57,190 nt of DNA from Acidobacteriota bacterium (GCA_003225335.1 QHZE01000454.1:1-57190); one strand, 5' to 3'. Positions 6,044 to 56,804 are shown, numbered from the stretch's first letter. Made by a program: numbers and translations. The notes: generated by a model from the letters alone, not told the origin.

Positions 6044-6345
6044 CAACTGACAACTAACAACAAAGAGCTGGCCGCGAATTACACGGTGCAGCCACAGCCA
6101 CAACCAAAAGCCTTCGCGATTCCTTTGCGCACTTAGCGACTTTGCCGTAAGACTGAGCCGGAGTTAACCGCGAAGACGCGAAGAGCGCGAAGGGTCGCCA
6201 AGAATTTTCCTGAAAGTGCAAGAATTGCTGGCTAGCGATAGCGAGTGAGCCTCATACCGCCGAGGGTAGGGAACCGCCGATGGACGCCGATCCACGCCGA
6301 TGAGCGGCGCCGAACATCGGCGTGCATCCGCGTTCATCGGCGGTT
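6044..6345. repeat. Cluster of short-period repeats and hairpins upstream of addB
   Basis: caactga-caactaa-caacaaa (6044-6064); ttcgcgatt...cgcgaagacgcgaag hairpin (6082-6192); aaccgccgat...atcggcggtt hairpin (6272-6345). Confidence 0.8.
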
Positions 6346-6854
6346 TCAAACAACTGCGCTTGTTCCATTTCTCTTTTATCAACCATGCCTCTCGGACGAA
6401 ATTTGACCATTTTGTGAACTTTGTGTCCACCAAGTGGACCTAGCCTGGCTGGCGGGGGCTGGCTTAATTTGGAGGGATTTCGCTGACATGGACCGCCGGC
6501 GAGAGAACAAATTCGTGAAATCCGCGGTAAGGCTTTCCGGAGTGGTCTCCGGAGGGCTAGCCTGCATGGTTAGTCCGTTAACTTACCCCTCGGACGGTTA
6601 GTTCGGTTGTGGAATTGAATCGCCCATCTCGAATGAAATATTATCTATGGCGTTCCCCCCCCGCTGTTGTGCGCAATGAGCGAAGTGTTTTTCAACTGAG
6701 AAACGTTGCGCCTCAAGTGAACAGAGTTTCGCAAAGACGGCGCCTTTGGCAGGTCGCTCCTGCAGGATGAGGTTCTGGCGAAGCGCGAAAGGTGGTCTTT
6801 CCCGTCTCGAATTGCGTTGCAAGAGCGGGACTCGACCGCCAAGGGTGAGTTGCA

Positions 6855-7499
6855 TTGATCACGGTTCTTTTGATACTTTCGGCGTTGAGCATTTTGACGG
6901 CTAGCCTCGTTTTTGGCGTCAAGACACGGGGAACTCCAAACGTAATGGGACAAGCGCACCCACCTGGCGAGCTGCCCACATTCCCTCCTATTCCACCTTT
7001 TGCGGTCGGCGTTACCCAGGTGACGGCGAGCGGCGTCTCCAAGACTCTCGCCGCCGGAAGGTACAGGAAGATCACAGCCAGCGAAGGGGCGAAGATTATC
7101 TTGACAGGGGGGACGTACTACGCCGATCAACTGGTACTGTCCGGAGGGTCCTCTCTTGTCCTGCCCGAGGACGTCAAGACAGTGCTCTTCATAAAATCGC
7201 GGTTGGACCTGTCCGAGGGATCGGTAACGAGCCCGAGCCGGAAACCGGCCTTTTTCCAAATCTTCTATGCGGGCGCCACGAAGGCAACCCTGTGCGGATA
7301 CGGCGGCTTCTGTGGCACGGTGTATGCCCCAAACGCGAAGCTGGAACTGAACAGCGCCAGTGAGTTTTATGGTTCCTTCACAGCGAACTCTCTTACCGCC
7401 AGCAGCGGGTCCCATATCCGCTGCACCGAGGGGCTTCTCCGCGACGTACAGAGTACCACGCCCGTCATGACGTGGGCGGGAACGCAGAGGAGTTATTAG
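6855..7499 (+). CDS. Exported beta-helix-like protein, resembles the PilX C-terminal / DUF7305-type domain
   Basis: TTG start after aagggtgag, N-terminal hydrophobic segment, and GTVYAPNAKLELNSASEFYGSFTANSLTASSGSHIRCTEGL, which matches the recalled VYAP..FYG....S.....HYDE pattern. Confidence 0.65.
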   Translation: MITVLLILSALSILTASLVFGVKTRGTPNVMGQAHPPGELPTFPPIPPFAVGVTQVTASGVSKTLAAGRYRKITASEGAKIILTGGTYYADQLVLSGGSSLVLPEDVKTVLFIKSRLDLSEGSVTSPSRKPAFFQIFYAGATKATLCGYGGFCGTVYAPNAKLELNSASEFYGSFTANSLTASSGSHIRCTEGLLRDVQSTTPVMTWAGTQRSY

Positions 7500-7539
7500 A
7501 TCTTCCTAAGAATGCGCGCTCTGCGTTCTCCTGGAGCGC

Positions 7540-7664
7540 AGGGATCCTGTTCACCACAAAGACATGTAACACGCGAAGAATCGCAAAGGATTTCTTCGCG
7601 TCTTCGCGCCTTGGTGGTGAGATTTTTTTGGTTGCGGCTGGGCTGTGTTCATCGGTGGTTTCAT
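7540..7664 (-). repeat. About 125-bp composite dispersed element, copy 1
   Basis: Reverse complement aligns by eye with 45801-45926: tgaaaccaccgat..cagccca..gcaaccaaaaa.atctcaccac..acgcgaagaaatcct.tgcgattcttcgcg..gtggtgaacaggat. Confidence 0.85.
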
Positions 7665-7685
7665 TTCGTAGTGTCTGGGCTGCGA

Positions 7686-8309: not shown

Positions 8310-8324
8310 GAATCCCTGTTCGAC

Positions 8325-8412
8325 GGATTGCGGATTGGCGATTGCAGGATTGCGGATTTAATGGAAAGCCTCGATTACGACAATCCGAAATCCGCAATCC
8401 GAAATCCGCAAT
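8325..8412. repeat. GGATTGC / AATCCGC heptamer hairpin
   Basis: ggattgcggattggcgattgcaggattgcggatt ... caatccgaaatccgcaatccgaaatccgcaatt between kynU and kynB. Confidence 0.9.
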
Positions 8413-9576: not shown

Positions 9577-9600
9577 CCCCTCCAAATAATGATCGAAACC

Positions 9601-9680
9601 TCTTCGTGGTTCTTCGTGCCTTCGCGTCTTCGTGGTGGATTGTGTCCGGTCCTTACCACGAAGACGCGAAGGCGCAAAGA
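9601..9680. repeat. TTCGCGTCTTCGTGG / CCACGAAGACGCGAA hairpin
   Basis: Inverted arms seen directly between the exported-protein gene and kynU. Confidence 0.85.
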
Positions 9681-9685
9681 ATTGC

Positions 9686-10561
9686 CTACTTGGGTGGCAC
9701 CGGTTTCGAAAAGAAGGAATCGAGAAGATTGTTGCTCAGCGTGATCTTGGTCAGAAAGAGCTGGGATGCCTTCCGGCCGTTGACGAAACCGTCGATGCGA
9801 AGAGGAAGTTTTACTCCCTGAACGACGTGCCACTGACTGTACTCTTCCACATTCCTGAGGTGGACTCCTCGTTTGTCCACATCTCGATATTCCACCTTGG
9901 CCGGCAATTTGCTCAAACGGTCAAAGTAAATCGTGACCGTATCGTTTTCCGGATCCAGAATCTGCACCAACTCGAGGGAAACGTCACCCCCCTCTCCCGG
10001 CCCGAGATAGAAGACCTTGTTCTGAGGATCCTTCCAGCGGAAGCGCAGGATGTTGTCCAGGCTGTGCTTGACGGCGTTTTTGAAAGACTTCATCTCGTCC
10101 GGCGTGGCGTCGCGAGTGTCCTTCTGCCCCTCCAGGATCCAGCCTTCGTTCTTTTCGAGGTTGAAGACGGTGACATCGCGTTCCTTTTTCTTGTTGCCCA
10201 GTTCGTTTCGGCTTTTGTCGGGGAATTTTGTCCAGTCGTTGAATTTGATGAGTCCCGAGGAGTCCCCGTCTCGGTTGAAGAGAAAGTAATTCCCCTCGCT
10301 CACCGTATCGGTGACTTTCAAGTAGGTCTCGCCGCCCATGGCCTCGATCGCCTCGCGGAATAGTTTCTGGATCTTTTCCTCGTCCTGCGCCGGCAGCAGA
10401 GGAATTAGCAACACCGCGCACGCCAGAAACAGGCAAAATTTCGGATTGCGGATTGCGGATTGCGGATTGGGAAAAACCGTAAATCGGAAGCCCGAGATCC
10501 GCAATCCGCAATCCGCAATCCGCAATCCGCAATCGACGTCAGTTTCCGATGTATTTCGCAT
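9686..10561 (-). CDS. Exported protein, possible LolA-like / lipoprotein-sorting fold
   Basis: Signal-like KFCLFLACAVLLIPLLPAQ followed by AIEAMGGE..TDTVSEG and a beta-rich body ending FFSKP. Start uncertain; ATG 10561 overlaps the end of moeB. Confidence 0.7.
   Translation of the reverse strand: MRNTSETDVDCGLRIADCGLRISGFRFTVFPNPQSAIRNPKFCLFLACAVLLIPLLPAQDEEKIQKLFREAIEAMGGETYLKVTDTVSEGNYFLFNRDGDSSGLIKFNDWTKFPDKSRNELGNKKKERDVTVFNLEKNEGWILEGQKDTRDATPDEMKSFKNAVKHSLDNILRFRWKDPQNKVFYLGPGEGGDVSLELVQILDPENDTVTIYFDRLSKLPAKVEYRDVDKRGVHLRNVEEYSQWHVVQGVKLPLRIDGFVNGRKASQLFLTKITLSNNLLDSFFSKPVPPK
10442..10534. repeat. GGATTGC / AATCCGC heptamer hairpin inside the 5' end of the exported-protein ORF
   Basis: About four heptamer units on the left arm and five on the right; reads [11 protein letters not shown]...NPQSAIRNP in frame. 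Confidence 0.9.
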
Positions 10562-11561: not shown

Positions 11562-11621
11562 CGCCAGTCTCCGCAGTCTGGTCAATATCGTAGCATAAGC
11601 GTCATGTGTGAGGGCTAGTAG

Positions 11622-11678
11622 CCACAGAGCCACAGAGACACCGAGAAAATCTGTCTCTGTGTCTCCGTGGCTCTGTGG
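11622..11678. repeat. CCACAGAG / CTCTGTGG hairpin between divergent moeB and PBP genes
   Basis: ccacagagccacagagacac ... ctctgtgtctccgtggctctgtgg. Confidence 0.8.
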
Positions 11679-17514: not shown

Positions 17515-17530
17515 TTGTTGGAGGCCGGTT

Positions 17531-17584
17531 TGGAGTTCAGCCTTTAGGCTGCCCAGGAGCTGTGCAGGTTAAAGCCTGAACTCT
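17531..17584. repeat. GGAGTTCAG..CCTGAACTC REP-like palindrome, possible terminator between convergent genes
   Basis: ggagttcagcctttaggctgc ... gcaggttaaagcctgaactc; same family at 20882-20933, 46630-46808 and a partial copy at 50912-50935. Confidence 0.8.
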
Positions 17585-17599
17585 AAGCCACAGGGGTGG

Positions 17600-19454: not shown

Positions 19455-19526
19455 GGCGCGCCCTCCGCGCCTTCGCGGTTAGTTCTGATTTCGCCTAGGA
19501 ACCGCAAAGACGCAAAGGGCGCGAAG
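19455..19526. repeat. CGCGCCTTCGCGGTT / AACCGCAAAGACGC hairpin
   Basis: Inverted arms related to the GAAGACGC family. Confidence 0.65.
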
Positions 19527-20764: not shown

Positions 20765-20933
20765 AGACCTCAGACTTCAGAGATCATACCTCAGACCTAG
20801 AACGCTTGAATATCTGCGGGGCTTTCTGTCGTGCCCGGCTCAGTCTGAAGTCTGATCCCTAAGATCTGAAGTCTGACCCGAGCAGGCTAAAGCCTGAACT
20901 CCGAACACGCAGGCTAGGGCCTGTACTCCAAAC
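20765..20933. repeat. CAGACCT/AGTCTGA heptamer hairpin followed by two REP half-sites
   Basis: gacctcagacttcagag..cctcagacc ... gtctgaagtctga..tctgaagtctga (20765-20877); gcaggctaaagcctgaactcc and gcaggctagggcctgtactcc (20882-20933). Confidence 0.85.
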
Positions 20934-20970
20934 CAGGCATTAACGCGGTAAATCGACGGGATGAACGTAC

Positions 20971-25000: not shown

Positions 25001-25502
25001 AAGACGGACCCCAGCTCAGCAGAACCAGCAACACCAGCAGTGCCCCGGCAGCCAGGCTTCCATGGGTCGCTATGCGCTTGCGATTGACGAAGACCGAAAA
25101 GTCCAACCGGTTCGTCTTGTCCAGAGCATCCTTGATCAGCAGATCCAGCATTCCAGCGGAGATGCGATCCCCCCGGCCGAATTCCATAGCCGTAACGAGC
25201 CGGTCTTCGAGCTTCGGGTAGCGCTCTTCCACGTACTGCGCCACCTGAACGTCGGACACCCGGCGCCTCAGCGGGAGGTAGAGGAAGCGGACAGCAACAA
25301 ACACTACAGCGCCTCCGGTCAGAAGGCGCATGGCCCACAGCGCCCCCGGCTTGAAGCCGAACAAGTCCGCTCCCCACACGCTGAGAACGAGCAGAGAGAT
25401 GCTCGAGGCCAAAAAGAGAGAAACCCCTTTTATCAGGATCTGCGTGCGCCATCTGCGGCGCACCATCCGGATCCTTTCGCGCAAGCTTTCATAGGAATTC
25501 AT
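22034..25502 (-). CDS. DUF4175-like membrane-anchored Ig-like/coiled-coil protein (about 1155 aa), interrupted by a 1-bp frameshift near 22428-22431
   Basis: Three N-terminal TM segments, a beta-rich middle ([20 protein letters not shown]) and a Q/E-rich coiled coil with [14 protein letters not shown] 22034..22414 supplies the typical EEYYKSL C-terminus. Total length 3469 = 3n+1. Confidence 0.75.
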
Positions 25503-25515
25503 GGGTTCCCCTCCC

Positions 25516-25590
25516 GATTGCGGACTGCGGATTGCGGATTTCGGATTGCGGGACCTGGCTGTTCAAATCCGAAATCCGCAATCCGCAATT
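25516..25590. repeat. GGATTGC / AATCCGC heptamer hairpin
   Basis: gattgcggactgcggattgcggatttcggattgcgg ... aaatccgaaatccgcaatccgcaatt. Confidence 0.9.
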
Positions 25591-25593
25591 CCC

Positions 25594-27705: not shown

Positions 27706-27792
27706 AAGCTGTTGTGGCACGGGCGTCTCGCCCGTGAAAAAACCCTCCGGAGATATCCAACCCGAATCATGGCCGGGACGGCCATGCTACGA

Positions 27793-28707: not shown

Positions 28708-28767
28708 TGTCAGACTCCAGATCAATTGACGATTGTTTGCCGATCGTCAGTCATGATCCGAACGAAA

Positions 28768-28866
28768 GGAATTCAGAATCCAGAATATCCGGCACACCCC
28801 CTCTATTCTGCATTGTGGCTCCTGGATTCTGGATTCCTGAACAATCGTCATTCGTCATTCGTAAAT
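28768..28866. repeat. CAGAATC / GATTCTG and TCGTCAT heptamer repeats
   Basis: attcagaatccagaat ... ggattctggattcctgaa; tcgtcattcgtcattcgt. Confidence 0.8.
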
Positions 28867-28868
28867 CC

Positions 28869-29891: not shown

Positions 29892-29952
29892 CCGCAGACT
29901 CCCCCTTTCTTCGGATTCTCTGTTGCTCGGGCGTTCGGCTTCACCACGGGAA

Positions 29953-30037
29953 AATTGCGGATTCCGGATTGCGGATTGTCGTACCAAGCCTTCCGTTATC
30001 TTCCAATCCGCAATCCGCAATCGCCAATCCGCAATCC
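29953..30037. repeat. GGATTGC / AATCCGC heptamer hairpin
   Basis: aattgcggattccggattgcggattg ... caatccgcaatccgcaatcgccaatccgcaatcc. Confidence 0.9.
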
Positions 30038-30038
30038 C

Positions 30039-33454: not shown

Positions 33455-33477
33455 GGAGAATTCTTTCGACCAAAATC

Positions 33478-33560
33478 CTCTTCGCGTCTTCGCGTCTTTG
33501 TGGTGAAGGCGGAGTGCCCTTTCACCACAAAGACGCGAAGACGCAAAGAATCGCAAAGAA
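33478..33560. repeat. TTCGCGTCTT / AAGACGCGAA hairpin
   Basis: ttcgcgtcttcgcgtctttgtggtgaa ... ttcaccacaaagacgcgaagacgcaaagaa. Confidence 0.9.
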
Positions 33561-33571
33561 CTTTCTGCCTT

Positions 33572-34750
33572 TCATTTGTTCTTACGCAATTTTGCGTTGA
33601 TAGTTGCCAGGCGAACCAGAAGTCCCTCCAGTTTCTTCTCGTACTCGGCTTCGGGCATTTCGGACCTGGCATACTTCAAGGCTTCAATCTGCCTTTCAAC
33701 TGTTTGCATTTCTGCTAATAGAGCCTCTTCCTCCGGGGTGCCCTTTCCCCGGGCCCACGCTGGAACCCCCGTGTCCAGGTAGGTAGTCCGCGCCAGGAAT
33801 CCTTCGCCGTTCTCCGGGCCGGGATCACTTTGCCCCTTTCCGTCGCCATCGTCATCCAGGACTGGATGCTCCGTCTTCAGAAGGCCCTGAGTGGAGTAAT
33901 ACTCTTCCACCTTGTGAGCGGCGTAATTGAAGGCTTCGAGGACGGAAACACGGCCGTTCTTGTCCGAATCCGCATTTCCGTTCTTGAAGGCTTCGACAAA
34001 AAACCTTCCCATCTGAGTCTGGTTCTTTTCCATACCGCTCTTGGTAGCCGAGACCACGATCTTCCCCTTCTGCGAGAGCGCGGGAACACTGGCTCCGCTG
34101 CAAGTAGTCATGTTGGCCACGACAAATCGCGCGGCGGGTATCGAATACAATATGGAGGCCAGTTCCTCGGCGGTCGGATCCGGGCCGGGAAGATTTAACT
34201 TGTAAGTCTTCGCGTCAAAGTTGCCATGGCCGGCAATGAAGACGAAAACCAGATCGTCCTTTCCCACGCGGGATGCGATCTCACGGCAAACCTTTTCCAG
34301 GTTCTCCCGCGTGGATTTGTAGGAAATCAGGCCGGGGTCTTTGGAGGGGTCGTCGAACAGGACAAAAACGTGGCCGCGATCAAACTGCATGGGCCCCGCA
34401 AGGGCAGCGTGAAGATCGCGAATCCACTTCAAGAACTCCTCCTGCAGCTCCGGGTCGCCGCTGATCCCGGAAATTAAGATGGCCCAGCGCCCCTGCCCGG
34501 AATCGCTCGCGAGGGAAAACGGCGGCATCATTAAGAAGAGAGCGAGCACAGCCACACCCCACAGACGGAAGGCGAGGGGCAGAGGGGCGGAGGGACAGAG
34601 GGGCAAAGGGGCAGAGGGGCAGAGGAGCCGAGGGGCAGGGGGGCCGAGGGGCAGAGGGACAGAGGGCAAAAAGCTTCGTGAATGAAGGCCGTCGCAAGCC
34701 CTTCCCTTTGCCCCTCGACCCCTTGACCCCTTTGCCCCTAGTTTACTCAT
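33572..34750 (-). CDS. Exported caspase/legumain-fold (C13/C14-like) cysteine peptidase
   Basis: WAILISG, VFIAGHG (His), NMTTCSG (Cys), VVSAT, EF-hand-like DSDKNGRVSVLE, EHPVLDDDGDG. ATG 34750 overlaps the upstream TGA (ATGA). Confidence 0.75.
   Translation of the reverse strand: MSKLGAKGSRGRGAKGRACDGLHSRSFLPSVPLPLGPPAPRLLCPSAPLPLCPSAPLPLAFRLWGVAVLALFLMMPPFSLASDSGQGRWAILISGISGDPELQEEFLKWIRDLHAALAGPMQFDRGHVFVLFDDPSKDPGLISYKSTRENLEKVCREIASRVGKDDLVFVFIAGHGNFDAKTYKLNLPGPDPTAEELASILYSIPAARFVVANMTTCSGASVPALSQKGKIVVSATKSGMEKNQTQMGRFFVEAFKNGNADSDKNGRVSVLEAFNYAAHKVEEYYSTQGLLKTEHPVLDDDGDGKGQSDPGPENGEGFLARTTYLDTGVPAWARGKGTPEEEALLAEMQTVERQIEALKYARSEMPEAEYEKKLEGLLVRLATINAKLRKNK
34574..34740. repeat. AGGGGC(A) / TGCCCCT heptamer hairpin within the 5' end of the peptidase ORF
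   Basis: About 13 purine-rich units, then loop aaaagcttcgtgaatgaa, then ccctttgcccctcgaccccttgacccctttgcccct. Confidence 0.9.
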
Positions 34751-37047: not shown

Positions 37048-37073
37048 CGAACAATGGAAGATCTCTTTGTTCC

Positions 37074-37089
37074 GTAGGGGCGCCCCTAC
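37074..37089. repeat. Perfect 16-bp palindrome GTAGGGGCGCCCCTAC
   Basis: Equals the two outer ends of the REP-like element at 50824-50902 joined with no interior. Confidence 0.85.
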
Positions 37090-37106
37090 GTCACGTCAAT
37101 TTTTTC

Positions 37107-37901: not shown

Positions 37902-38020
37902 TTTCAGATCAATCCCTCGCTTGAATTACTATCGCAAGGTTTCCGAAGATTATATCAAAGCGCCGTGCTTCAGCCCAAAGCGATTCCCCCGGCGGCAGCA
38001 TCGCTCCAGCGCAGTTTCTT

Positions 38021-38090
38021 TGCCACGAATTTCACGAATTACACGAAAAAGGGATAAACACAATTCGTGGAATTCGTGAGATTCGTGGCA
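38021..38090. repeat. CACGAATT / AATTCGTG hairpin
   Basis: tgccacgaatttcacgaattacacgaa ... aattcgtggaattcgtgagattcgtggca; same family at 39926-40008. Confidence 0.9.
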
Positions 38091-38359
38091 AGTCTTTCTG
38101 TCGTAGACTCTTCCTCCTGAGATTAACGGGTTATAGCGCAGCACGTGTTCGATTCGAGATGCAAAGACCCGTCCTACTACCCACATCGGTGTTGCCTTTC
38201 CGCCCTCCTAAGTTGCAGTTGGCTCCGACTGGGCTTTCTGGTAACGACCGGCCACGCTTTGGGATTTCCTTCACTGTTCTAATACGATGGATTCGAGCGG
38301 GTGTTCTACATTCTTCCTTGGGCCTTGCAACTGAGAATGAATCTCTCCCGTTAAAAGCT

Positions 38360-38464
38360 AAAGGGGCAACGGGGACAAAGGGGCAAAGGGGTAAACGGGA
38401 AAAGCTTCGTGATGAATGCGTCTCCTACCTTAATTAAGCTTTCCCTTTGCCCCTTTGTTCCTTC
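38360..38464. repeat. AAGGGGC / GCCCCTT heptamer hairpin
   Basis: Same family as 34574-34740; shares the loop sequence aaaagcttcgtga(a)tgaa. Confidence 0.85.
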
Positions 38465-39925: not shown

Positions 39926-40008
39926 AAAAACTGGCCACGAATTCCACGAAGTCTTCCACCCTCAGCTGGGCTGTTTCGTGGACTTCGTGGAATTCGTGGC
40001 CAGTTTTT
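39926..40008. repeat. CACGAATT hairpin between divergent genes
   Basis: aaaaactggccacgaattccacgaagtc ... gacttcgtggaattcgtggccagttttt. Confidence 0.9.
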
Positions 40009-40674: not shown

Positions 40675-42900
40675 GTGAAATACGGGGACAGTCACCTTTT
40701 TTCGCCGGCGAGGATTTCTCCCAACGGACGCTCCAGAGCGAAAAAAGGTGACTGTCCCCGTATTTCTTCGTGTCTTCGCGGTGCGTTCCTAGCTTTCCCT
40801 CTTGCCCTGTTCCTCCTCCCGGCCGGGTGCGGAAGGCGAAAGCTGAGCTCGGATGAACTGGAACGTAACCGGCTGTTTGCCGAAATCCTCAAACGTGAAG
40901 ACCGGCGGACCTTGGGAGAAGACGATTTCTTTCCCCGCAACCTGCATTTCTCGACACATCCGGAGGTTCGCCAATGGTGTGCCGTCGCTCTTGGCCGGAT
41001 AGGAAACCGGCGCGCTCTTCCCTGGCTCTACAACGCGCTTCATTCGTCCTATGCAAGCGTGCGGGCTGCCGCGGCATTTGCCGTCGGAGAGATTGAAGAT
41101 CGCGAAACTCTGAAAGAGGAGTTCCTCCGGGTGGATCCCCGCGCCGCCTCGGAACTCGTTGCAGCTCTGGACGACCCTTCGATCCAGGTACGCATGCGCG
41201 CTGTGGAAGCGCTTGGTAAGGCGGGATCGCCTTCGGATTCGGTTGAGATCATCCGGCGGCTTCATGCCCTTCCTTACGAAGGATCTCCCGTGGAGCAAAC
41301 CTACCTCAGACTCGCCATAACGGCCTTGACGCGTTTGAGGGACCCGTCGGCTGTTCCTGCTTTAGAGAAGCTTGCGGAGTCGCCGGACCCCGAAATCCAG
41401 TGGCGCTGCGCCAACGGTCTCTATGGTCTCCGCGCGCGGAAGGCCCGGTCCACCTTCTTGAGACTCCTCCGGAGTTACAACCCTGATGTTCGCGCCCATG
41501 CCGCGCGCGGCGCCGGCATCTGCGAGGCTCCGGACCTGGCTGACGCGCTCATTCCGCTGATCTCGCTGCACGATCCTGACTCCGGAAAGCCAAACTCGCT
41601 GGGGGTGCGCGCCAGCGCGGTCGAAGCACTCGGGAACCTCCGGAACCCGGGGGCAATCCCGGCAATCCGGAAGGCCCTGCAGGAAGCTCCCATCGTTCGT
41701 GCCAACCCGGAGCAGGTCAATTTTGCCGTGCAGGCCGCCGCCGCTCTCGGAAACATTGGCGCGCCGGAAGGGAAGGATGCGCTGGTCCCGCTCACCAGGA
41801 TTCAGGGGCCTGCTGCCGTGAGCGCGGTCATCGCCCTGGCAAAGTTGTCGAGAGGAAACGCGACGTTTTTTGATCTGGTTCGGCTGGAAGACTTCACGAC
41901 CGAAGCCGCGCGTCGTGCGGCGGCTCAAGCCCTGGGCGAAGTTGGCGGCCCGGAGGCGGTTCGCCGTCTGAAACTGATGTTGATTCAGGCAGCCAGCGAG
42001 CGCGCAACGGCGGCGGAGATCCGTGCCGTCCCGGCCGCGGTCGAAGCTCTGGCCCGGATCGGAGTCGAAGATTTGCAGACAATAGTCGAACCCTATCTTG
42101 CGTCGCATGACGGCGTCATCCTGCGAGCAGCCATCAAGGCCTACAAGCCGCCACCGCGAAGAAAAGCGCCGTGGAAACCGCTGGTCGAAGCTTATCAAAG
42201 GATGGCCCCCGGCTGGGACCTGGAGGCGAAGGTGAGTGCGCTGAGCGCCCTGCAACCCTGGCTTTCCGAACAGGACGTGCAGGCGGTTCTGCGCTCGGCG
42301 CTCGGCGACCGGCAGCGCAATGCTCGCGTCGCTGCTTTAAGTCTGCTGCGCAAGGCCGGAGCGACCGATGTGCCGGACGATCCCGGCCCCTCCGAAAGCG
42401 CTACGACCGATATAACCTACAGCATTCTCGCCGTCTCACGGCAGAATCGTACCGTCGCGACTCTCGAGACGGAGCGAGGGAACATAGAGATCGAGCTCTA
42501 TCGCGAGGACGCTCCACTCACGACAGCGAACTTCATCTCCCTTGCCCGCGGCGATTTCTTCAACGGCCTGAGCTTCATGCGCGTCGTGCCCTACTACGTG
42601 ATCCAGGGCGGGGATCCGCGCAACGACATGGAAGGAGGTCCCGGTTACACGATCCGGTGCGAGATAAACATGCGCGCTTACGAAAAGGGGAGCGTCGGGA
42701 TGGCGCTCTCCGGGAAGGACACCGGAGGGAGCCAGTTTTTCATTACTCTTTCGCCACAACCCCGTCTGGATGGCGGGTTCACCTGTTTTGGCAGGGTGAT
42801 CAGCGGGATGCAGGCGGCCCAAAGCATGACTGCCGGGGACAAGATCCTCAAGGTCCGGATTGAGGAAGACCACACCCTTTTCGACTACCGCCGTTATTAA
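40675..42900 (+). CDS. HEAT-repeat protein fused to a C-terminal cyclophilin-type PPIase domain; putative lipoprotein
   Basis: Repeated VR..AA.ALG units; TERGNIEIEL, FFNGLSFMRVVPYYVIQGGDP, GMALSGKDTGGSQFFIT; signal-like FLAFPLALFLLPAGC. Confidence 0.88.
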   Translation: MKYGDSHLFSPARISPNGRSRAKKGDCPRISSCLRGAFLAFPLALFLLPAGCGRRKLSSDELERNRLFAEILKREDRRTLGEDDFFPRNLHFSTHPEVRQWCAVALGRIGNRRALPWLYNALHSSYASVRAAAAFAVGEIEDRETLKEEFLRVDPRAASELVAALDDPSIQVRMRAVEALGKAGSPSDSVEIIRRLHALPYEGSPVEQTYLRLAITALTRLRDPSAVPALEKLAESPDPEIQWRCANGLYGLRARKARSTFLRLLRSYNPDVRAHAARGAGICEAPDLADALIPLISLHDPDSGKPNSLGVRASAVEALGNLRNPGAIPAIRKALQEAPIVRANPEQVNFAVQAAAALGNIGAPEGKDALVPLTRIQGPAAVSAVIALAKLSRGNATFFDLVRLEDFTTEAARRAAAQALGEVGGPEAVRRLKLMLIQAASERATAAEIRAVPAAVEALARIGVEDLQTIVEPYLASHDGVILRAAIKAYKPPPRRKAPWKPLVEAYQRMAPGWDLEAKVSALSALQPWLSEQDVQAVLRSALGDRQRNARVAALSLLRKAGATDVPDDPGPSESATTDITYSILAVSRQNRTVATLETERGNIEIELYREDAPLTTANFISLARGDFFNGLSFMRVVPYYVIQGGDPRNDMEGGPGYTIRCEINMRAYEKGSVGMALSGKDTGGSQFFITLSPQPRLDGGFTCFGRVISGMQAAQSMTAGDKILKVRIEEDHTLFDYRRY
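40678..40765. repeat. Perfect 28-bp inverted repeat (GGGGACAGTCACC family) with a 32-bp spacer, inside the 5' end of the ORF
   Basis: aaatacggggacagtcaccttttttcgc (40678-40705) / gcgaaaaaaggtgactgtccccgtattt (40738-40765). Confidence 0.95.
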
Positions 42901-42955
42901 GCAGCGGGCAATAGGCAGTTTCTGCCTTCTGCCGACTGCCTTCTGCCTACTGCTT
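42901..42955. repeat. CTGCCTT/CTGCCTA heptamer run between convergent genes
   Basis: gggcaataggcag ... ctgccttctgccgactgccttctgcctactgc. Confidence 0.8.
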
Positions 42956-44201: not shown

Positions 44202-44205
44202 GATT

Positions 44206-44251
44206 CAGTGGCCGGTGGCCAGCGAACCACTGACCACTGGCCACTGACCAC
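44206..44251. repeat. CAGTGGC / CCACTGA heptamer hairpin
   Basis: cagtggccggtggcc ... accactgaccactggccactgaccac. Confidence 0.8.
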
Positions 44252-45800: not shown

Positions 45801-45926
45801 TGAAACCACCGATAAACACGGCGCAGCCCAGTCGCAACCAAAAAATCTCACCACGAAGACACGAAGACGCGAAGAAATCCTGTGCGATTCTTCGCGTCTT
45901 CGTGTCTTCGTGGTGAACAGGATACC
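45801..45926 (+). repeat. About 125-bp composite dispersed element, copy 2
   Basis: Inverted copy of 7540-7664. Confidence 0.85.
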
Positions 45927-46557: not shown

Positions 46558-46564
46558 GGGCCCG

Positions 46565-46808
46565 TCCAAACCTCTGGACCGTATTTTCATGCGCTTGGGT
46601 GCGGCGCGCATGTAAGACTGCCGTCAGGCTCGGAGTTCAGGCTTTAGCCTGCTCGGACGCCGTGCAGACTGAAGGCTGAACTCCAAACCTGTGGACCGTA
46701 TTTTCATGCGCCTGGGTGCGGCCCCGGCGCATGCAAGACTAACGTTAGGCTCGGAGTTCAGGCTTTAGCCTGCTCGGACGCCGTGCAGACTGAAGGCTGA
46801 ACTCCAAA
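46565..46808 (+). repeat. Tandem duplication (117 + 121 bp), each unit containing a REP-like palindrome
   Basis: Both units read tccaaacct.tggaccgtattttcatgcgc.tgggtgcggc..gcgcatg.aagact..cgt.aggctcggagttcaggctttagcctgctcggacgccgtgcagactgaaggctgaac. Confidence 0.92.
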
Positions 46809-46857: not shown

Positions 46858-48312
46858 ATGTTTGGCGAATTGAATGTGGCGTTTGTCTTCGTGGGCCTGG
46901 CAATGGCATTCATCCTGGCAATCTATGCCGTAGCCCGGCGCTACAAGAAAGTGGGTCCCAACCAGGTAATGGTCATTTCCGGCCGGAAGTACAAGATAAA
47001 GACACCTGACGGCCGTGTTGAAGAAGTAGGATTCCGGATCCGGCGCGGCGGCGGTGCCTTCATTGTCCCGCTGCTGGAAAAAGTCGACCTGCTCAGCCTC
47101 GAGATTATGACGCTCGACGTCACGACTCCCGAGGTTTACACCAAGCCCGGCGTCCCGATTATCGTCGATGCCATCGCTCAGGTGAAGGTTGGAGGTGACG
47201 AGCAGTCGATCCGAACGGCCTCGGAGCAGTTTCTCGGAAAGAGCTCCGAACTGATCAAAGAAATCGCCCTCCAGACCGTCGAGGGCCACCTTCGGGCGAT
47301 CATCGGTACCATGACGACCGAAGACATTTACAAGAACCGCGACCAGTTCGCTTCCTCGGTCCAGGAGGTGGCCGTTTCCGACCTCGCCAACATGGGGTTG
47401 AAAATAGTCTCGTTCACCTTGAAGGACATCCGTGACAGTCACGGGTACCTGGACGCCCTGGGCAAGCCTCGGACTGCCGAGGTGAAGCGCGACGCTATCA
47501 TCGCTCAGGCGGAGGCGGATCGTGATGCTGCGATCAAGTCGGCACAGGCGCGACAGGCAGGGGAGATAGCCAAGTTCCAGGCAGAAACGCAAATTGCGGA
47601 AGCGCAGAAGAACTTCCTGCTGCAGAAAGCGGTTTTCGACGCAAAGACGAACGAAGCCAAGGCCCAGGCGGACCTTGCGTACGACCTTCAGCGCTTCAAG
47701 ACCAACCAGGCTCTGAAGAAAGAAGAGGTTCAGGTCTCAGTCGTGGAGAAGGAACAGCAGATTACCGTGCAAGAGAGAGAGATTCTCCGGCGCGAGAAGG
47801 AACTGGAAGCGACGGTCAAACGGCAGGCGGATGCCGAGCGCTACAAAGTCGAAACCGAAGCGGCCGCCACGCGGTTCAAATACGAAGCCGAGGCCCGCGG
47901 TCAGGCAGAGGCTCAGAAAGCGAAGGGTCTGGCGCAGGCGGAGGTAGTCAAGGCTACCGGTACCGCGGAGGCAGACGTAATTGCCCTCAAGGGCCGTGCC
48001 GAAGCCGATGCCATGGCCAAGAAGGCCGCGTCCTGGAAAGAATACAATGAGGCGGCCGTGATCCAGCTTGTGCTGCAGGCGTTGCCGGAGATCGCAAGAG
48101 CGGTTGCCGAGCCTCTCTCTAAGACGGACTCGATTACCATCGTCAACACGGGGGGCGACAGCGCCGGGGCGAGCAAGCTGACGCAGGATGTTTCCGTCAT
48201 CATGGCTCAATTACCTCCGATTATTCAGAACCTCGGAGGGATAGACCTGAAAAAACTTGTGGAACTGGTTCCCACCCTCAAGGCCGGCAAGCCAAAAAAG
48301 ATTGACGAATGA
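46858..48312 (+). CDS. Flotillin (SPFH/band 7) protein
   Basis: KKVGPNQVMVISG, LSLEIMTLDV, EGHLRAIIG, YLDALG and A/E-rich coiled-coil repeats. Confidence 0.93.
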   Translation: MFGELNVAFVFVGLAMAFILAIYAVARRYKKVGPNQVMVISGRKYKIKTPDGRVEEVGFRIRRGGGAFIVPLLEKVDLLSLEIMTLDVTTPEVYTKPGVPIIVDAIAQVKVGGDEQSIRTASEQFLGKSSELIKEIALQTVEGHLRAIIGTMTTEDIYKNRDQFASSVQEVAVSDLANMGLKIVSFTLKDIRDSHGYLDALGKPRTAEVKRDAIIAQAEADRDAAIKSAQARQAGEIAKFQAETQIAEAQKNFLLQKAVFDAKTNEAKAQADLAYDLQRFKTNQALKKEEVQVSVVEKEQQITVQEREILRREKELEATVKRQADAERYKVETEAAATRFKYEAEARGQAEAQKAKGLAQAEVVKATGTAEADVIALKGRAEADAMAKKAASWKEYNEAAVIQLVLQALPEIARAVAEPLSKTDSITIVNTGGDSAGASKLTQDVSVIMAQLPPIIQNLGGIDLKKLVELVPTLKAGKPKKIDE

Positions 48313-48396
48313 CGAATGACGATTGAACTACCTTAAGATTCTTCACTCGTCATTCGTCACTCGTCATTCGTCACTCGTCATTCGTCATTCGTCAAT
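48302..48396. repeat. AATGACG / TCGTCAT heptamer hairpin; overlaps the flotillin stop
   Basis: tgacgaatgacgaatgacg ... ctcgtcattcgtcactcgtcattcgtcactcgtcattcgtcattcgtca. Confidence 0.92.
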
Positions 48397-48399
48397 CCC

Positions 48400-49629: not shown

Positions 49630-49666
49630 GGCACGCCGCGGCGAAACGAAAGTTGGTAACTTTGGG

Positions 49667-50823: not shown

Positions 50824-50902
50824 GTAGGGGGCGACCCTGTGTGGTCGCCCGCCCAGCCAATAATAGCGGGCACTCGCGGGCGGCCACGCAGGGCCGCCCC
50901 TA
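50824..50902. repeat. GTAGGGG(G)CG...CGCCCCTA REP doublet
   Basis: gtagggggcgaccctgtgtggtcgccc ... gggcggccacgcagggccgccccta. Confidence 0.85.
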
Positions 50903-50979
50903 AGAACGGCGCAGCCTGAAGACCGAACTCCAAACTTGGCGAGCGCGTTAAATAAGGACACTCTTGGGTCTCCATACGC

Positions 50980-52414: not shown

Positions 52415-52479
52415 GCCTTCAGACCTCAGACCTCATCCAATTTCCCCGGTCTGAGGTCTGAAGTCTGAGGTCTGAAGGC
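52415..52479. repeat. CAGACCT / AGGTCTG heptamer hairpin
   Basis: gccttcagacctcagacctc ... ggtctgaggtctgaagtctgaggtctgaaggc. Confidence 0.9.
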
Positions 52480-53531: not shown

Positions 53532-53680
53532 TGACGTCACGTCGATCCTAAAGTGTAAGCTACTCCGCGTAAACTGCACAAAATGAAACCACCGATGCGC
53601 ACCGGTGAACTCAGATCCGTGTTATCTGTACTACTAACCAGCAAATTCTTGGCCGCCTCGAAAGAATTTATCCGGGTTTT

Positions 53681-53729
53681 CCTGGGAGCGCACGCTTCCA
53701 GCGTGCTCACGGTTTCGCGATTAACAGAG
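53681..53729 (+). repeat. 49-bp inverted repeat, left copy
   Basis: cctgggagcgcacgcttccagcgtgctcacggtttcgcgattaacagag is the exact reverse complement of 54787-54835; part of a local hairpin 53678-53757. Confidence 0.92.
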
Positions 53730-53980
53730 CACGCAAGATGCGTGCGCTCCCAGGAAACGTCCTCACCGGTCTGAATCTTTTTTTGGTTGCGGCTGGGCTG
53801 TTCTCTGAAATTCGTGGCGAGGCTTTTCTAAAAAACTCCTTGACTGTTGTGACAGAAGCCAATTACGTTTGAAGGCCCTCAGTTTTTCCCTCGAGTTTGA
53901 ATTCAAGTTCGAGCCAGACCTCGCTGTACGTCGATCCCTAAGGCTCTCTGCAACTACTTTCAAGCCTGGAGGGCTGGAGT

Positions 53981-54676
53981 GTGTCCAAGACACTCGAGGG
54001 CTTCAAATTCGGATTCTCCCCAATTCAAGCCGCAGATATCCTTTCCCTGAGCTCTGGGCGGGTTCCGTCGCTGGACGATTGGCCGCCTGAACAGCTGTCG
54101 CGGATGCGAGTGATATTCAGAAAATTGACCTCGATGCGAATCGTGAACCCCGAGGATGCGGAGGACGTTGTCCAGGAGACTTTTCTGACCATGGCAGAAA
54201 AGTTTCCGTGCGTCCGGCTTCAGAAGGGGCTTCTCGTGTGGGGTATGGGAATCTTGCGCCGCAAGGTCGGAAACTACTATCGCCGGCCAAACCGCACGGC
54301 CGGGCTGGATCAGGAAATAGTGGATGCGTCTGTATTGCGCGTCGTCCAGTCGCAGCCTTCGCCGGAGTCCCACTTCCGTCGCGCAGAGCTTCAGACGCTC
54401 GTGCAATCGCTCGTTCGGGAATTGCCGCCGAGGGAACGGATCGTGATGGATCTCGTTTTGGCGGGGCTGGCAACGCATGAGATCGTGGATCTTCATTATC
54501 CGGAACCCTATCAGAACGTCACGAACCGTATTCATCGCGCGCGCGGGCGGCTGCTCAAACGGCTTGCGAAATACGGTTACAGGGTGTACACACGGCGGGA
54601 AAAGAGTGGGCGAAAGCCCGCGGGGTGCGTCTCTGGACGGGGATCTTCCGGCAACGTCTCAAAGGGACACGGATGA
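53981..54676 (+). CDS. ECF-type RNA polymerase sigma-70 factor
   Basis: DAEDVVQETF (region 2.2), WGMGILRRKVGNYYRR, LPPRER, VTNRIHRARGRL (region 4.2); GTG start after ggagggctggag. Confidence 0.85.
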   Translation: MSKTLEGFKFGFSPIQAADILSLSSGRVPSLDDWPPEQLSRMRVIFRKLTSMRIVNPEDAEDVVQETFLTMAEKFPCVRLQKGLLVWGMGILRRKVGNYYRRPNRTAGLDQEIVDASVLRVVQSQPSPESHFRRAELQTLVQSLVRELPPRERIVMDLVLAGLATHEIVDLHYPEPYQNVTNRIHRARGRLLKRLAKYGYRVYTRREKSGRKPAGCVSGRGSSGNVSKGHG

Positions 54677-54786
54677 TCAGGGCGCGGCATAGCCCCGTAA
54701 CCATGAATGAAGCCACCGATGAACACAGCGCAGCCGAAGCCGCAAAAGGGTGAGGCCGCCTCCTGAGAGCGTCCCGCGCAGCGGGT

Positions 54787-54835
54787 CTCTGTTAATCGCG
54801 AAACCGTGAGCACGCTGGAAGCGTGCGCTCCCAGG
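54787..54835 (-). repeat. 49-bp inverted repeat, right copy
   Basis: Exact reverse complement of 53681-53729. Confidence 0.92.
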
Positions 54836-54893
54836 GATCACCGCCGAGACGCGGAGAACGCAGAAAAATCCTTTCCGGAAAGCGTCTCTCACT

Positions 54894-55457
54894 TCAAGAC
54901 GCGGCCCTGGCGCTTCTGCGCAGCCAGCGATAACCGAGTATTCCTCCGGCGAGAAGGAGCGGAATAAGCCAGAGCAAATAACCGGGAAGGGAGACAAGGT
55001 TCTCCCAGATCGTTCGGCCGAAGCGATAGGCCAGCACGGTGTAAAACGAAGACCAGAGGACCGCGCCGATAAAATTCAGAAAGCCGAAAACAACGGGCCG
55101 CATCCCGCCAACGCCGCACGCCGTCGAGATCGCGATACGCATTCCTGTCACGAAGCGGGAGACGAACGCCACGGCGGGACCGTATTTCTCCACCAGGACC
55201 TGCGCCTTCGGGTAGGCGCGCATGAACTTGCTGGAGCGCTGAAACAGCCGTAATCCGCAGAAGCGGGCAAAGTGGAAGTACGCCTGATCTCCGAGCGACC
55301 CTCCGAGCGCAGCTGACGCGATGACGGCCGGGAGCGAGAGGTACCCTTCACGTGCCAGCACGCCGCCCATGAGGGCGACTTCTTCTCCGCCGACCATGGC
55401 GAACAACACTATTCCCGCATATCCATAAGCTCGTACGTAATGCTCCAAAGTCCCCAT
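54894..55457 (-). CDS. dedA: DedA family membrane protein
   Basis: YGYAGI, GGEE, ALGGSLGDQAYF, YGPAVAFVSRFVTGMR, NFIGAVLW. Confidence 0.9.
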   Translation of the reverse strand: MGTLEHYVRAYGYAGIVLFAMVGGEEVALMGGVLAREGYLSLPAVIASAALGGSLGDQAYFHFARFCGLRLFQRSSKFMRAYPKAQVLVEKYGPAVAFVSRFVTGMRIAISTACGVGGMRPVVFGFLNFIGAVLWSSFYTVLAYRFGRTIWENLVSLPGYLLWLIPLLLAGGILGYRWLRRSARAAS

Positions 55458-55754
55458 GATTCACTTCTTGTCAGCTGAGATGCGGTGGGACAGGATTCTT
55501 TTTTTCATAAGTTAACCGGCCAATCTTCCTGGTCCAAGATAAAACGGGACGATTGGCCACTTCGATTAACCAAGCACGAGAAGCTGATCTGATGTATTTT
55601 CCCCCAGCTGTGCTTTGTTCTTGAGTCGAAAAAGTTCATTTTGGCTCCTGTGGAGCGAACGAATATGGCTTTCCTGCAATCGAGACAAGGTGGTTCTCAA
55701 AAAAAAATTGGTCAATTTTACAGGCTCCAATCTGGGCACCGATTAGCCGGTTAA

Positions 55755-56804
55755 TCATTGGATATCAAGAAACGAAACTCTCACCGCGGAAGGCGCGCCC
55801 GAGGACTTCAGGAACGAAACCAGGTCCAGAAGCTCGCGCAGGGTGTAAATCTCGCCGTAGCGCTCCGGCATCGCCGATCGAGTTTGGGGCTCAACGCTCT
55901 GGATTTTTTCCTTTGCGAGGCGCCGGAGAACCGGCGGGACCCTGCTCATGTCGAAGACTCGAACGGCCGCGGGCGTCTCTTCCTGCTTCAATCCCAGAAT
56001 CTTCTCGCCGTCTTTCATTACGATGCGGAGAAGCGGCTTGCTCGCGTCAAGGGCAGGCCCGGGAAAAACAATGTCTCCAAAAAGCGCGCGCGCATTTCTG
56101 CGAACCGAGCCCGTCAGATCCGGGCCCACGGGATTTCCTTTGCCGTCTATCACGTGACAGCCGACGCATCCTCTTTCTCCCGCTGTGGCGAAGAAAAGCT
56201 GTTCGCCACGCGCAGGATCTCCCACGAGGCTTTCGGGCAGGGGAGCTGCTGGAGCTGTGAAAGCCGGCCTGGTTTTCTCGGGGGCGAACCCGGCAGAGGA
56301 GGGTTGGCTTTTCACCGGCTCTTCTCCGGAGATCGAAAGGATGTAGGCTGTGACTGCCGAGATCTGCCGTTCGGTGAGTTTGTCATTCCAGTTAGGCATC
56401 GACGTATTGGGGATCCCTTCCATGATGACCTTGCGCAGTCGAGTGACTTCCCACTTCTTGTCCCTCACCGAGGGTGCGCGTCCAGCGGCCCCTTCGCGGC
56501 CATGACAGTAGGTGATAGAGCAATTTTGAGCAAAGACCTTATCCCCCTCGGAAATCAGCTGTGGGTCCTTGAGATCGATCGGCGTCTTCTGAGCACTGGA
56601 GATTTCCCGAGCCGCCGCTCCTGGAACCGGAAGAATGAGGAGAGGAACAAGCACAGCAAGCCGGAAAACAATTCGTGATTCTTCGCGTCTTCGCGTCTTC
56701 GTGGTGAGTCGGGGTCGGGCTTTACCACGAAGACGCGAAGACACTAAGAATCGCCAAGTTTTTGGTTGCGGTTCCGCTGCTCGGCGTTCATCTGCGGCGT
56801 GCAT
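55755..56804 (-). CDS. Exported c-type cytochrome with putative heme-binding domain (two heme sites)
   Basis: CSITYCH (CX4CH), GIPNTSMP, GDPARGEQLF, CVGCH (CXXCH), VGPDLT, SAMPERY, LLDLVSFL. Start uncertain. Confidence 0.82.
   Translation of the reverse strand: MHAADERRAAEPQPKTWRFLVSSRLRGKARPRLTTKTRRREESRIVFRLAVLVPLLILPVPGAAAREISSAQKTPIDLKDPQLISEGDKVFAQNCSITYCHGREGAAGRAPSVRDKKWEVTRLRKVIMEGIPNTSMPNWNDKLTERQISAVTAYILSISGEEPVKSQPSSAGFAPEKTRPAFTAPAAPLPESLVGDPARGEQLFFATAGERGCVGCHVIDGKGNPVGPDLTGSVRRNARALFGDIVFPGPALDASKPLLRIVMKDGEKILGLKQEETPAAVRVFDMSRVPPVLRRLAKEKIQSVEPQTRSAMPERYGEIYTLRELLDLVSFLKSSGAPSAVRVSFLDIQ
56672..56804. repeat. GAAGACGC hairpin plus TTTTGGTTGCGG element at the cytochrome 5' end
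   Basis: ttcttcgcgtcttcgcgtcttcgtggt ... accacgaagacgcgaagac; tttttggttgcggttccgctgctcggcgttcatc. Confidence 0.85.

Follow-up and report, generated by a model that had tools for sequence, protein, structure and literature searches.

Periodic hairpins at the gene junctions of a soil acidobacterium are probably a mixed population of foldback-type repeat elements

Why does nearly every gene junction in a stretch of a soil bacterium's chromosome hold a hairpin whose arms are tandem arrays of a short unit, with unrelated units at different junctions and one architecture throughout? This question is raised by a 57,190-nt contig from an uncultured soil member of the Acidobacteriota (QHZE01000454.1:1-57190, from the metagenome-assembled genome, or MAG, GCA_003225335.1), which we will call the window. 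A sequence-only reading of the window described these hairpins and proposed that they are RNA structures that tune operon stoichiometry or else the empty docking sites of small mobile cassettes. We argue that the junction hairpins are probably small foldback-type repeat elements of mixed kinds, without coding capacity, which have colonised the intergenic space of this Acidobacteriota lineage.

The observation itself is real and strongly non-random. A strict detector (arms of at least 16 nt that are at least 80% complementary, with a loop of at most 100 nt) found 27 hairpins in the window versus 0.98 in dinucleotide shuffles, of which we ran 40 as the null. Arms with a period of 6-10 nt were present in 17 of the 27, as compared to 0.025 in the shuffles. 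At the sites named by the sequence-only reading, Tandem Repeats Finder identified paired arrays with a period of 7-10 nt and 2.4-11.6 copies, and an inverted-repeat search found that the paired arrays are complementary (80-100%) over arms of 16-40 nt. Our hand-checked catalogue covers 6027-57190, which includes 36 gene junctions. It contains 24 hairpins whose arms have a period of 7-10 nt, spread over 22 of the junctions; 11 non-periodic hairpins bring the number of junctions that hold a hairpin to 29. The hairpins have predicted stabilities of -29 to -94 kcal/mol. So the claim of periodic hairpins at the junctions holds up, and by Tandem Repeats Finder, inverted repeats, and inspection of the sequence, every family and coordinate that had been listed is present. 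Some of the listed elements need correction: the one at 50715 is a single arm, those at 6110 and 19455 are degenerate, and the one at 28845 is a decayed outer arm. The CGCCGAT element has a period of 10 nt, and it lies within a 205-nt miniature inverted-repeat transposable element (MITE; 6227-6443). The spacers, given as 20-50 nt, are loops of 7-79 nt by our measurements, and the CAGAATC family (28767-28838) was absent from the list.

The hairpins survive solely in the short gap that separates a stop codon from the ribosome-binding site that follows it. Just 12% of 6027-57190 is non-coding, yet this fraction holds all of the catalogued hairpins, which fill 43% of it. All 24 periodic elements lie in the non-coding 12%, but this is partly true by construction: the stop codons are firm, while several start codons were set by hand, from Pfam matches and the lengths of orthologs, so as to exclude the hairpins, because gene callers read through the repeats. 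A hairpin typically begins 0-11 nt past the upstream stop codon and ends a few nucleotides ahead of the next Shine-Dalgarno sequence. Periodic hairpins are found at 15 of the 21 co-directional junctions, and hairpins are present between convergent and divergent genes as well. The first 6 kb of the window are free of hairpins because they consist of two long overlapping genes, AddA and AddB, without intergenic space. We considered whether this hairpin-free region might be an island and rejected the idea, as the overlap accounts for it.

The turnover of hairpins by gain, loss, and exchange outpaces the accumulation of 1% sequence divergence. We compared the window to 31 contigs from other samples (cited by our labels, such as L001) that differ from it at 0.25% of coding sites, or about 99.7% identity. 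Mismatches per site were 1.0% in non-coding sequence versus 0.25% in coding sequence, and indel events per kb were 4.9 versus 0.02. Most of the indels are whole units (plus or minus 7, 8, 9, 14, 21, or 24 nt), which is to say that the arms gain and lose whole units of 7-9 nt. For example, strains differ by -14 and -21 nt at the GGATTGC hairpin at 10438..10534, by +7 nt (in six contigs) at the one at 25516..25589, by -8, -7, and +7 nt at the nested pair at 28727..28862, and by +24 nt (in two strains) at the hairpin at 34574..34739. Also, the tandem duplication at 46565..46808 is single copy in three of the contigs.

There are larger events too. First, an 81-nt GAAGACGC hairpin at 49640 is present in two contigs and absent from seven. 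Second, a 205-nt copy of the MITE, 95% identical to 6227-6443, lies at 20911 in four contigs and is flanked by a direct repeat of 7-10 bp. At least this one of the window's elements, 6227-6443, is thus a MITE of the classical kind, with what looks like a target-site duplication; in one of the four contigs (L141), synteny breaks at the insertion site. Third, whole hairpins have been replaced. At 9585-9685 in L146, an AATGACM hairpin and a GC hairpin take the place of the GAAGACGC hairpin, and at 29911-30039, in four contigs with two alleles, small unrelated hairpins take the place of the GGATTGC hairpin. The sequence on either side of the two replaced segments is conserved, at 99.4-99.9% identity as far as the stop codon and the ribosome-binding site. 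The L146 allele rests on one contig; the other larger events were each seen in independent assemblies. Finally, the whole element at 48300-48397 is inverted in L001, L002, L004, and L136, with varying unit numbers in its arms, and in L150 the loop of the hairpin at 39926-40008 has the opposite orientation. These inversions imply that the two arms of an element recombine with each other.

More distant relatives show that the junction hairpins are derived insertions into an operon that was compact. The window encodes a complete Bat/MoxR aerotolerance-type operon (22034-37901) within a long cluster of genes on the minus strand. An initial scan of genome contigs with the BatA protein found no relative; we later obtained relatives whose BatA is 52-61% identical and whose contigs share the window's gene order. 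In L013-L015 and L016, the Bat operon has gaps of -4 to 46 nt, plus one of about 105 nt, and its junctions have no periodic hairpins. As the operon is compact and hairpin-free in these relatives, hairpins must have invaded an ancestrally compact operon. In L011 and L012, there are hairpins at the same junctions as in the window, mostly from other families (AGGCAG/CTGCC and GCAGTTC). Their MoxR-DUF58 junction carries AATGACG arms; in the window, this junction holds a CAGAATC hairpin nested inside AATGACG arms that have decayed. The AATGACG, CACGAATT, and CTGCC families recur in L011 and L013, and the recurrence of CACGAATT and AATGACG in distant genomes implies that these families are older than this lineage.

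These comparisons bear on the proposal that the hairpins process RNA or set operon stoichiometry, for which we found no support. Under this proposal, the hairpins would be selected RNA elements: intercistronic processing or stabilising structures, such as RNase III sites or barriers to exonucleases, that are kept to tune expression within operons. The placement at co-directional junctions, with onset just past the upstream stop codon and the next gene's Shine-Dalgarno sequence left free, is what would be expected, and the stems are very stable. There are also precedents in the hairpins between hupS and hupL of cyanobacteria, for which a role in stabilising the hupSL transcript was proposed (PMC2670836), and in the intercistronic stem-loops that set the stoichiometry of the cellulosome (PMC4423207). 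On the other hand, the same operon lacks hairpins in relatives, near-identical strains swap, lose, or flip them, and they also lie at convergent and divergent junctions. Furthermore, neither strand is favoured: across 17 co-directional hairpins, the folding energy of the sense strand is lower than that of the antisense strand for 8 and higher for 9, and the differences sum to -2 kcal/mol. Overall, we consider selected RNA elements to be rather unlikely. A selected structured RNA element would be expected to have strand-specific structure (from G-U pairs) and to be conserved across relatives. The hairpins do not look like one: the energies show no strand bias, an Rfam search matched no family, and relatives and strains either lack the hairpins or have others in their place. 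We rejected canonical intrinsic (Rho-independent) terminators: on the sense strand, none of the 17 co-directional hairpins is followed by a U-tract, defined as 5 or more T among the first 8 nt past the stem. Only the hairpin at 7551-7620, between convergent genes, resembles one (it has a T-run on the plus strand).

This does not mean that the hairpins have no effect on mRNA. By analogy to the stems of REP and Correia elements, those of intervening sequences (PMC4990558), and intercistronic stem-loops (PMC4423207), cutting by RNase III or a barrier to exonucleases is likely. Near-perfect stems of 25-45 bp that are transcribed within operons would be substrates for RNase III or barriers to 3' exonucleases, and the altered fate of the mRNA would be a side effect of the stems instead of a selected and conserved function. 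Only four soil metatranscriptome runs contain the locus, as assembled contigs that break at the repeats and are uninformative on transcript ends, and a second search gave runs of DNA contigs alone.

If the hairpins are repeat elements, then their anatomy should say something about how they arise. The GAAGACGC elements are more than an octamer array, as they have conserved non-periodic motifs at the head and the tail. The directional module is a TCACCAC head, a (GAAGACGC)n array, and a AAGAATCGCAAAG tail, often with the flank TTTTTGGTTGCGGCTGGGCTG. It is paired both ways, as in the doublets of repetitive extragenic palindromic (REP) elements: tail-to-tail at 7551, at 45848, and in the L001 and L136 insertions, and head-to-head at 9601, 33479, and 56666. 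The heptamer families GGATTGC, AATGACG, CAGACCT, AGGCAG, and CAGTGGC each have one polarity at all copies seen, as do the 8-9-nt families GAGGGGCA and CACGAATT, and the loop differs from copy to copy. The families do not agree in any purine bias or GC skew of their 5' arms. A MITE is defined by a conserved interior, terminal inverted repeats, and a target-site duplication. With its 95% identical copy and the direct repeat around it, 6227-6443 fits this definition, and elements of the 7522-7645 type, of which the strain contig L136 has a copy at a new locus, fit it in part. The heptamer hairpins do not qualify as MITEs, as their loops are unique and there is no clear duplication.

Similar arrays are widespread. 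Among GTDB species genomes, at least 119 contigs carry an exact three-unit GGATTGC array. Among the matches listed, the hosts include Acidobacteriota, Verrucomicrobiota, Planctomycetota, Bacteroidota, Chloroflexota, Gemmatimonadota, Armatimonadota, Fibrobacterota, and Proteobacteria; for about 45% of the GGATTGC arrays, there is a partner in inverted orientation no more than 300 nt away; the order is 5'-GGATTGC..GCAATCC-3' for 67 pairs and the reverse for 2, with the rest being solo; and the sequence in which they lie, 864 kb in all, contains 477 arrays with a period of 7-9 nt, built from 222 distinct units. With a crude mask of long open reading frames (ORFs) in six frames, a test of junction bias for the GGATTGC arrays of other phyla gave no more than a weak depletion (0.65 vs. 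0.79); it is a poor test given that the arrays lack stop codons. In IMG/VR, we searched for exact arrays of three units (2.5 units for the octamer GAAGACGC). Matching stretches numbered 64 for GGATTGC, 33 for GACGAAT, 30 for GAAGACGC, and 2 for CAGACCT, as compared to 2 and 13 for the only two controls that we ran, which were scrambles with the composition of GGATTGC. So some units are favoured, though nearly any unit can occur.

Could each hairpin have arisen where it is, without any mobility? A short stem could grow in place by replication slippage and by template switching at quasi-palindromes. This would account for length polymorphism in unit steps, for the order of unit variants being mirrored in the two arms, and for the unique loops, and the 222 distinct units among 477 arrays also fit it. 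However, the same units recur at 5-7 loci within 57 kb and in relatives, and whole hairpins appear at sites that had no precursor. Nor would local growth produce the 67-to-2 bias in the order of the pairs or lead GGATTGC, GACGAAT, and GAAGACGC arrays to be 2-30 times as common in IMG/VR as scrambled controls. A purely local origin seems highly improbable to us.

The sequence-only reading's other proposal, of docking sites, came with the statement that four-helix-bundle and GxxExxY genes are often flanked by such repeats. For four-helix-bundle genes in other phyla, this held in every case that we examined: in all four loci (L019, L083, the L158 group, and the L167 group), a TIGR02436 four-helix-bundle gene lies between inverted heptamer arrays. 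The four loci have four different heptamer units, and unit numbers vary between samples. We met the L019 and L083 genes by chance and fetched the L158 and L167 groups on purpose. In these two groups, one four-helix-bundle gene is located, in opposite orientation, between the genes for the two subunits of a 2-oxoacid:ferredoxin oxidoreductase, and the other lies between gltX and a gene with a B12-binding domain; both are inserted into otherwise ordinary gene pairs. Arrays might be the ends of cassettes of small genes (four-helix-bundle genes of the Avd/S23p-like kind, GxxExxY genes, or others), comparable to the intervening sequences of 23S rRNA, and the hairpins with short loops might be the form without a cassette. 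Besides the four framed genes, several observations are consistent with this. In the loci that we fetched, GGATTGC pairs enclose loops as short as 6 nt and as long as 1.3 kb, and those in L026, L030, L082, L025, L060, and L072 contain other genes or nested elements. The AATGACG arms in L011 have loops of 170 and 400 nt, and the window itself has a nested hairpin (28727-28862). Also, there are intervening sequences with a 28-bp terminal stem that is cut by RNase III (PMC4990558).

Nevertheless, we think it quite unlikely that the window's hairpins are empty or remnant docking sites. A hidden Markov model built from 117 TIGR02436/PF05635 homologues had no match in the window, which agrees with the sequence-only reading, nor in the 31 strain contigs or in 144 array-bearing loci from IMG/VR, and a regular-expression search for GxxExxY proteins gave spurious matches only. 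Across the 31 strain contigs, there is no filled allele at any junction of the window; the polymorphisms that we observed are swaps of hairpin for hairpin. The long loops in L011 contain no recognisable gene, and arrays are far more common than the genes that they frame. With no member of the family and no filled allele, the arrays are not merely scars of four-helix-bundle genes; these genes may use the hairpins or be captured by them. We rejected two other readings, CRISPR arrays and the attC sites or cassettes of integrons. In the latter case, the neighbours are housekeeping and operon genes in conserved synteny, and there is no integrase.

We are left with small foldback-type repeat elements as the probable explanation. 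These would evolve at the DNA level and be tolerated only at gene junctions. Slippage, along with conversion from arm to arm and from copy to copy, would maintain the likeness of arms within a family, and if each family descends from one founder, this would explain its fixed polarity. Several observations do not fit so well. The loops of the heptamer hairpins are unique to each locus (the five GGATTGC copies in the window have five unrelated loops, and metatranscriptome contigs have further, different ones), which is not expected from simple copy-and-paste transposition. A single heptamer in so many phyla is unusual for REP-type elements. We did not find a donor for the 81-nt insertion, as a metagenome scan gave only the same locus in another sample, and among the Pfam matches of the window's genes, there is no domain of a transposase or of a REP-associated tyrosine transposase (RAYT; IS200/IS605-like Y1). 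Also, some differences in unit number may be artefacts of metagenome assembly.

The fixed polarity of families, the unique loops, the clean swaps between strains, and the small genes in some loops raise a bolder idea: inverted arrays of tandem heptamers could be a class of mobile or self-renewing elements that crosses phyla and has no recognisable transposase. We consider this unlikely. A directional process that is independent of sequence, such as fold-back self-primed synthesis on a template that carries the repeat or a structure-specific recombinase, would fit the pattern of polarity, loops, and swaps, and ordinary transposition fits it less well.

Some of the non-periodic repeats also recur. 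Members of a second family (GGAGTTCAGGCTTTAGCCTGC...GCAGACTGAAGGCTGAACTCC), each about 60 nt long, fold into a hairpin of their own; the MITE is inserted into one copy, and two are within the 121-nt duplication that is single copy in other strains. The inverted repeat at 40677-40766 (GAAATACGGGGACAGTCACCTTTTTTCGC) has recognisable relatives at 557-640 and 20230-20300 of L013, an acidobacterial genome whose BatA is only 56% identical. This type is far more conserved than the periodic hairpins, and it may represent either a site of regulation or a REP family of some age.

The rest of the window is ordinary chromosome with a GC content of about 58%. It encodes a kynureninase-cyclase cluster, ThiF, PBP1A, MurC, flotillin-NfeD, and a pyrroloquinoline quinone (PQQ) dehydrogenase with its own cytochrome c, and proteins identical to the window's are found in dozens of soil metagenomes. 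A search for tRNAs found no match. On the minus strand, a single frame is open throughout 1-2840 and leaves the window; it encodes an AddA/UvrD-like helicase, with a Walker A motif (AGTGKT) near 2740, and overlaps the end of AddB. The DUF4175-family gene (22034-25502) is in two frames in the window, split near 22353-22414. It is intact in several strain contigs (1187 aa, or 1169 aa in one) and has 1193-1207 aa in relatives, so the split reflects a frameshift or else a mistake in the assembly of the MAG. About 200 nt upstream of the DUF7305 gene (6440-6640) have no ORF, no repeat, and no Rfam match, with local stem potential (GGCTTTCCGGAGTGGTCTCCGGAGGGCTAGCC). The gene for a sigma factor of extracytoplasmic-function type (53981-54676) has the hairpin with 31-nt arms (53678-53757) on one side and a single arm, inverted, at about 54795-54835 on the other; CCACCGATGAACAC-like motifs lie near this gene, at about 53590 and 54715, and at 7650. 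There are also differences between strains within genes. At 7389-10502 of L144 (14392-17514 of the window), the DUF6079/AAA gene is called as three ORFs, with the middle one (195 aa) on the opposite strand, which suggests an insertion. At 6642 of L136 (48687-48755 of the window), there is an in-frame length difference of 69 nt in the MFS transporter gene, whose product is called as 430 aa in L001 and 409 aa in the window.

Table 1. Hairpins, repeats, and related features by position in the window.
Position	Feature	Context or remark
1-6026	AddA and AddB	minus strand
6110..6200	degenerate GAAGACGC-family hairpin, head-to-head	upstream of AddB start
6227..6443	205-nt MITE-like element	encloses CGCCGATnnn (10-nt period) hairpin, 6272-6345
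7551..7650	GAAGACGC hairpin (7551-7620) and conserved flank GATTTTTTTGGTTGCGGCTGGGCTG	between convergent genes
8324..8412	GGATTGC hairpin	fills kynureninase-to-cyclase junction; 0 nt from stop, 14 nt before next start
9601..9681	GAAGACGC hairpin, head-to-head	
10438..10534	GGATTGC hairpin, 32-nt arms 97% complementary	ThiF / next gene
11620..11678	CCACAGAG (8-nt period) hairpin	divergent ThiF / PBP1A
17530..17585	non-periodic GGAGTTCAGGCTTTAGCCTGC-family hairpin	convergent genes
19455..19525	degenerate GAAGACGC hairpin	DegT / carbamoyltransferase
20765..20876	CAGACCT hairpin, 43-nt loop	
20882..20935	GGAGTTCAGGC-family element	MITE insertion site in strains L137, L139, L140, L141
21936..22033	GGATTGC/GGATTTC hairpin	order of unit variants mirrored between arms
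25516..25589	GGATTGC hairpin	BatA / DUF4175
27714..27787	two small GC-rich non-periodic hairpins	DUF58 / BatA
28727..28862	nested pair	decayed outer AATGACG arms around intact CAGAATC hairpin, 28767-28838
29954..30037	GGATTGC hairpin	DUF4159 / MoxR
33479..33560	GAAGACGC hairpin, head-to-head	C13-like gene / TPR gene
34574..34739	GAGGGGCA (8-nt period) hairpin	unequal arms of 11.6 and 2.8 units
37075..37095	small GC hairpin GTAGGGGCGCCCCTAC	
38020..38091	CACGAATTn (9-nt period) hairpin	
38360..38460	AAAGGGGC (8-nt period) hairpin	2 nt from M16 peptidase stop
39926..40008	CACGAATTC hairpin, perfect 28-nt arms	
40677..40766	perfect 29-nt inverted repeat, GGGGACAGTCACCTTTTTTCGC type	non-periodic
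42899..42955	AGGCAG/CTGCCTT hairpin	fills convergent junction
44205..44251	CAGTGGC/CCACTGA hairpin	
45848..45916	GAAGACGC hairpin, tail-to-tail, perfect 29-nt arms	divergent region
46565..46808	121-nt tandem duplication	two GGAGTTCAGGC-family hairpins
48300..48397	AATGACG hairpin	flotillin / MFS genes
49639..49641	empty site	81-nt GAAGACGC hairpin inserted in strain contigs L001 and L136
50700..50735	lone TGTCATT arm	overlaps called start of VWA gene
50828..50935	GC-rich inverted repeat and GGAGTTCAGGC-family fragment	
52415..52479	CAGACCT hairpin	downstream of MurC start
53678..53757	non-periodic hairpin, 31-nt arms	lone arm repeated at about 54795-54835, beyond sigma-factor gene
56666..56763	GAAGACGC hairpin, head-to-head	PQQ-dehydrogenase / cytochrome c
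17530-17585, 20882-20935, 46614-46702, 46735-46808, 50910-50935	copies of GGAGTTCAGGCTTTAGCCTGC...GCAGACTGAAGGCTGAACTCC family	

The locus gives a concrete picture of the dynamics of heptamer repeats: invasion of compact operons, change by whole units, flips, and swaps within a species. Our wider searches provide leads in the form of units common to several phyla, fixed polarity within families, and four-helix-bundle genes that are framed by arrays. Should the elements lead to cutting or stabilisation of operon mRNAs as well, they would be a fast-evolving layer of variation in expression in one of the most abundant phyla of soil bacteria. As a practical matter, metagenome assemblies break at the hairpins, and gene callers are misled by them, several calling ORFs that run straight across. 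To us, the most interesting part is how the heptamer hairpins originate and spread, given their unique loops, fixed polarity, and clean swaps.

How do these hairpins compare to known systems? We think that they probably belong to the same broad class as the short tandemly repeated repetitive (STRR) hairpins of cyanobacteria, the GGGAATC pairs of Xanthomonas, REP elements and their doublets (REPINs), Correia elements, and MITEs. The sequence-only reading had likewise seen many sequence families with one architecture and had pointed to STRR and REP elements, and we agree; most of the hairpins lie at co-directional junctions. The over-representation of heptamer repeats in bacteria has been known since 1990 to 2007. 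Our coverage of the literature was incomplete, and within it we found no paper on such elements in Acidobacteriota or on GGATTGC arrays across phyla, no published link between heptamer repeats and four-helix-bundle or GxxExxY genes, and none of the exact repeat strings.

In the intervening sequences of 23S rRNA, a long terminal stem, excised by RNase III, has a small gene in its loop (PMC4990558). Unlike these sequences, with their S23p/four-helix-bundle ORFs, the window's hairpins lie between protein-coding genes and carry no gene. Correia (or NEMIS) elements and enterobacterial repetitive intergenic consensus (ERIC) elements are about 100 nt long, intergenic, and co-transcribed, with inverted ends, and RNase III or RNase E cuts their hairpins and changes mRNA stability. 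Those elements have a conserved interior and a defined target duplication, whereas in the window only 6227-6443 and the 7522-7645 type do. The Foldback (FB) elements of Drosophila have inverted arms of short tandem sub-repeats, with variable arm lengths and a variable middle that sometimes contains unrelated genes. They are eukaryotic, however, and of kilobase scale, and they have no sequence relation to the window's hairpins.

REP elements and bacterial interspersed mosaic elements (BIMEs) are extragenic palindromes at operon junctions, with inverted doublets that form long hairpins and several families per genome. REPINs share parts of their architecture with the window's hairpins (PMC3116915). 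In particular, the GAAGACGC module occurs in both pairings, and there are inverted doublets in extragenic space. But REPs are not built of tandem units, are specific to lineages, and are linked to RAYTs, while one heptamer family here spans many phyla.

Two systems have heptamer arrays. In Xanthomonas, there are about 185 GGGAATC arrays, and 70-75 of them form convergent inverted pairs; detailed literature on heptameric repeats was lacking at the time of that report (PMC4692102). As in the window, these are intergenic arrays with inverted pairs, and the length of the repeat varies by species while its type is kept (PMC4692102). They differ in being a single G-rich family that was interpreted as forming G-quadruplexes; the window has at least 11 families, and most are not prone to form G-quadruplexes. 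In cyanobacteria, the STRR arrays that separate hupS from hupL can fold into hairpins, and it has been proposed that they act in termination, in translational coupling, or on the stability of the transcript (PMC2670836). STRRs resemble the window's arrays in having tandem 7-nt units that are intergenic, often within operons, and able to form hairpins, with several unrelated units per genome (PMC2670836). The units are different (STRR1-3 are CCCCAGT, TTGGTCA, and CAACAGT, from heterocystous cyanobacteria), as is the phylum. Furthermore, nearly every array in the window is paired as a hairpin, the density reaches 22 of 36 junctions, and turnover between strains is documented. The window's arrays are of the STRR type in the broad sense only.

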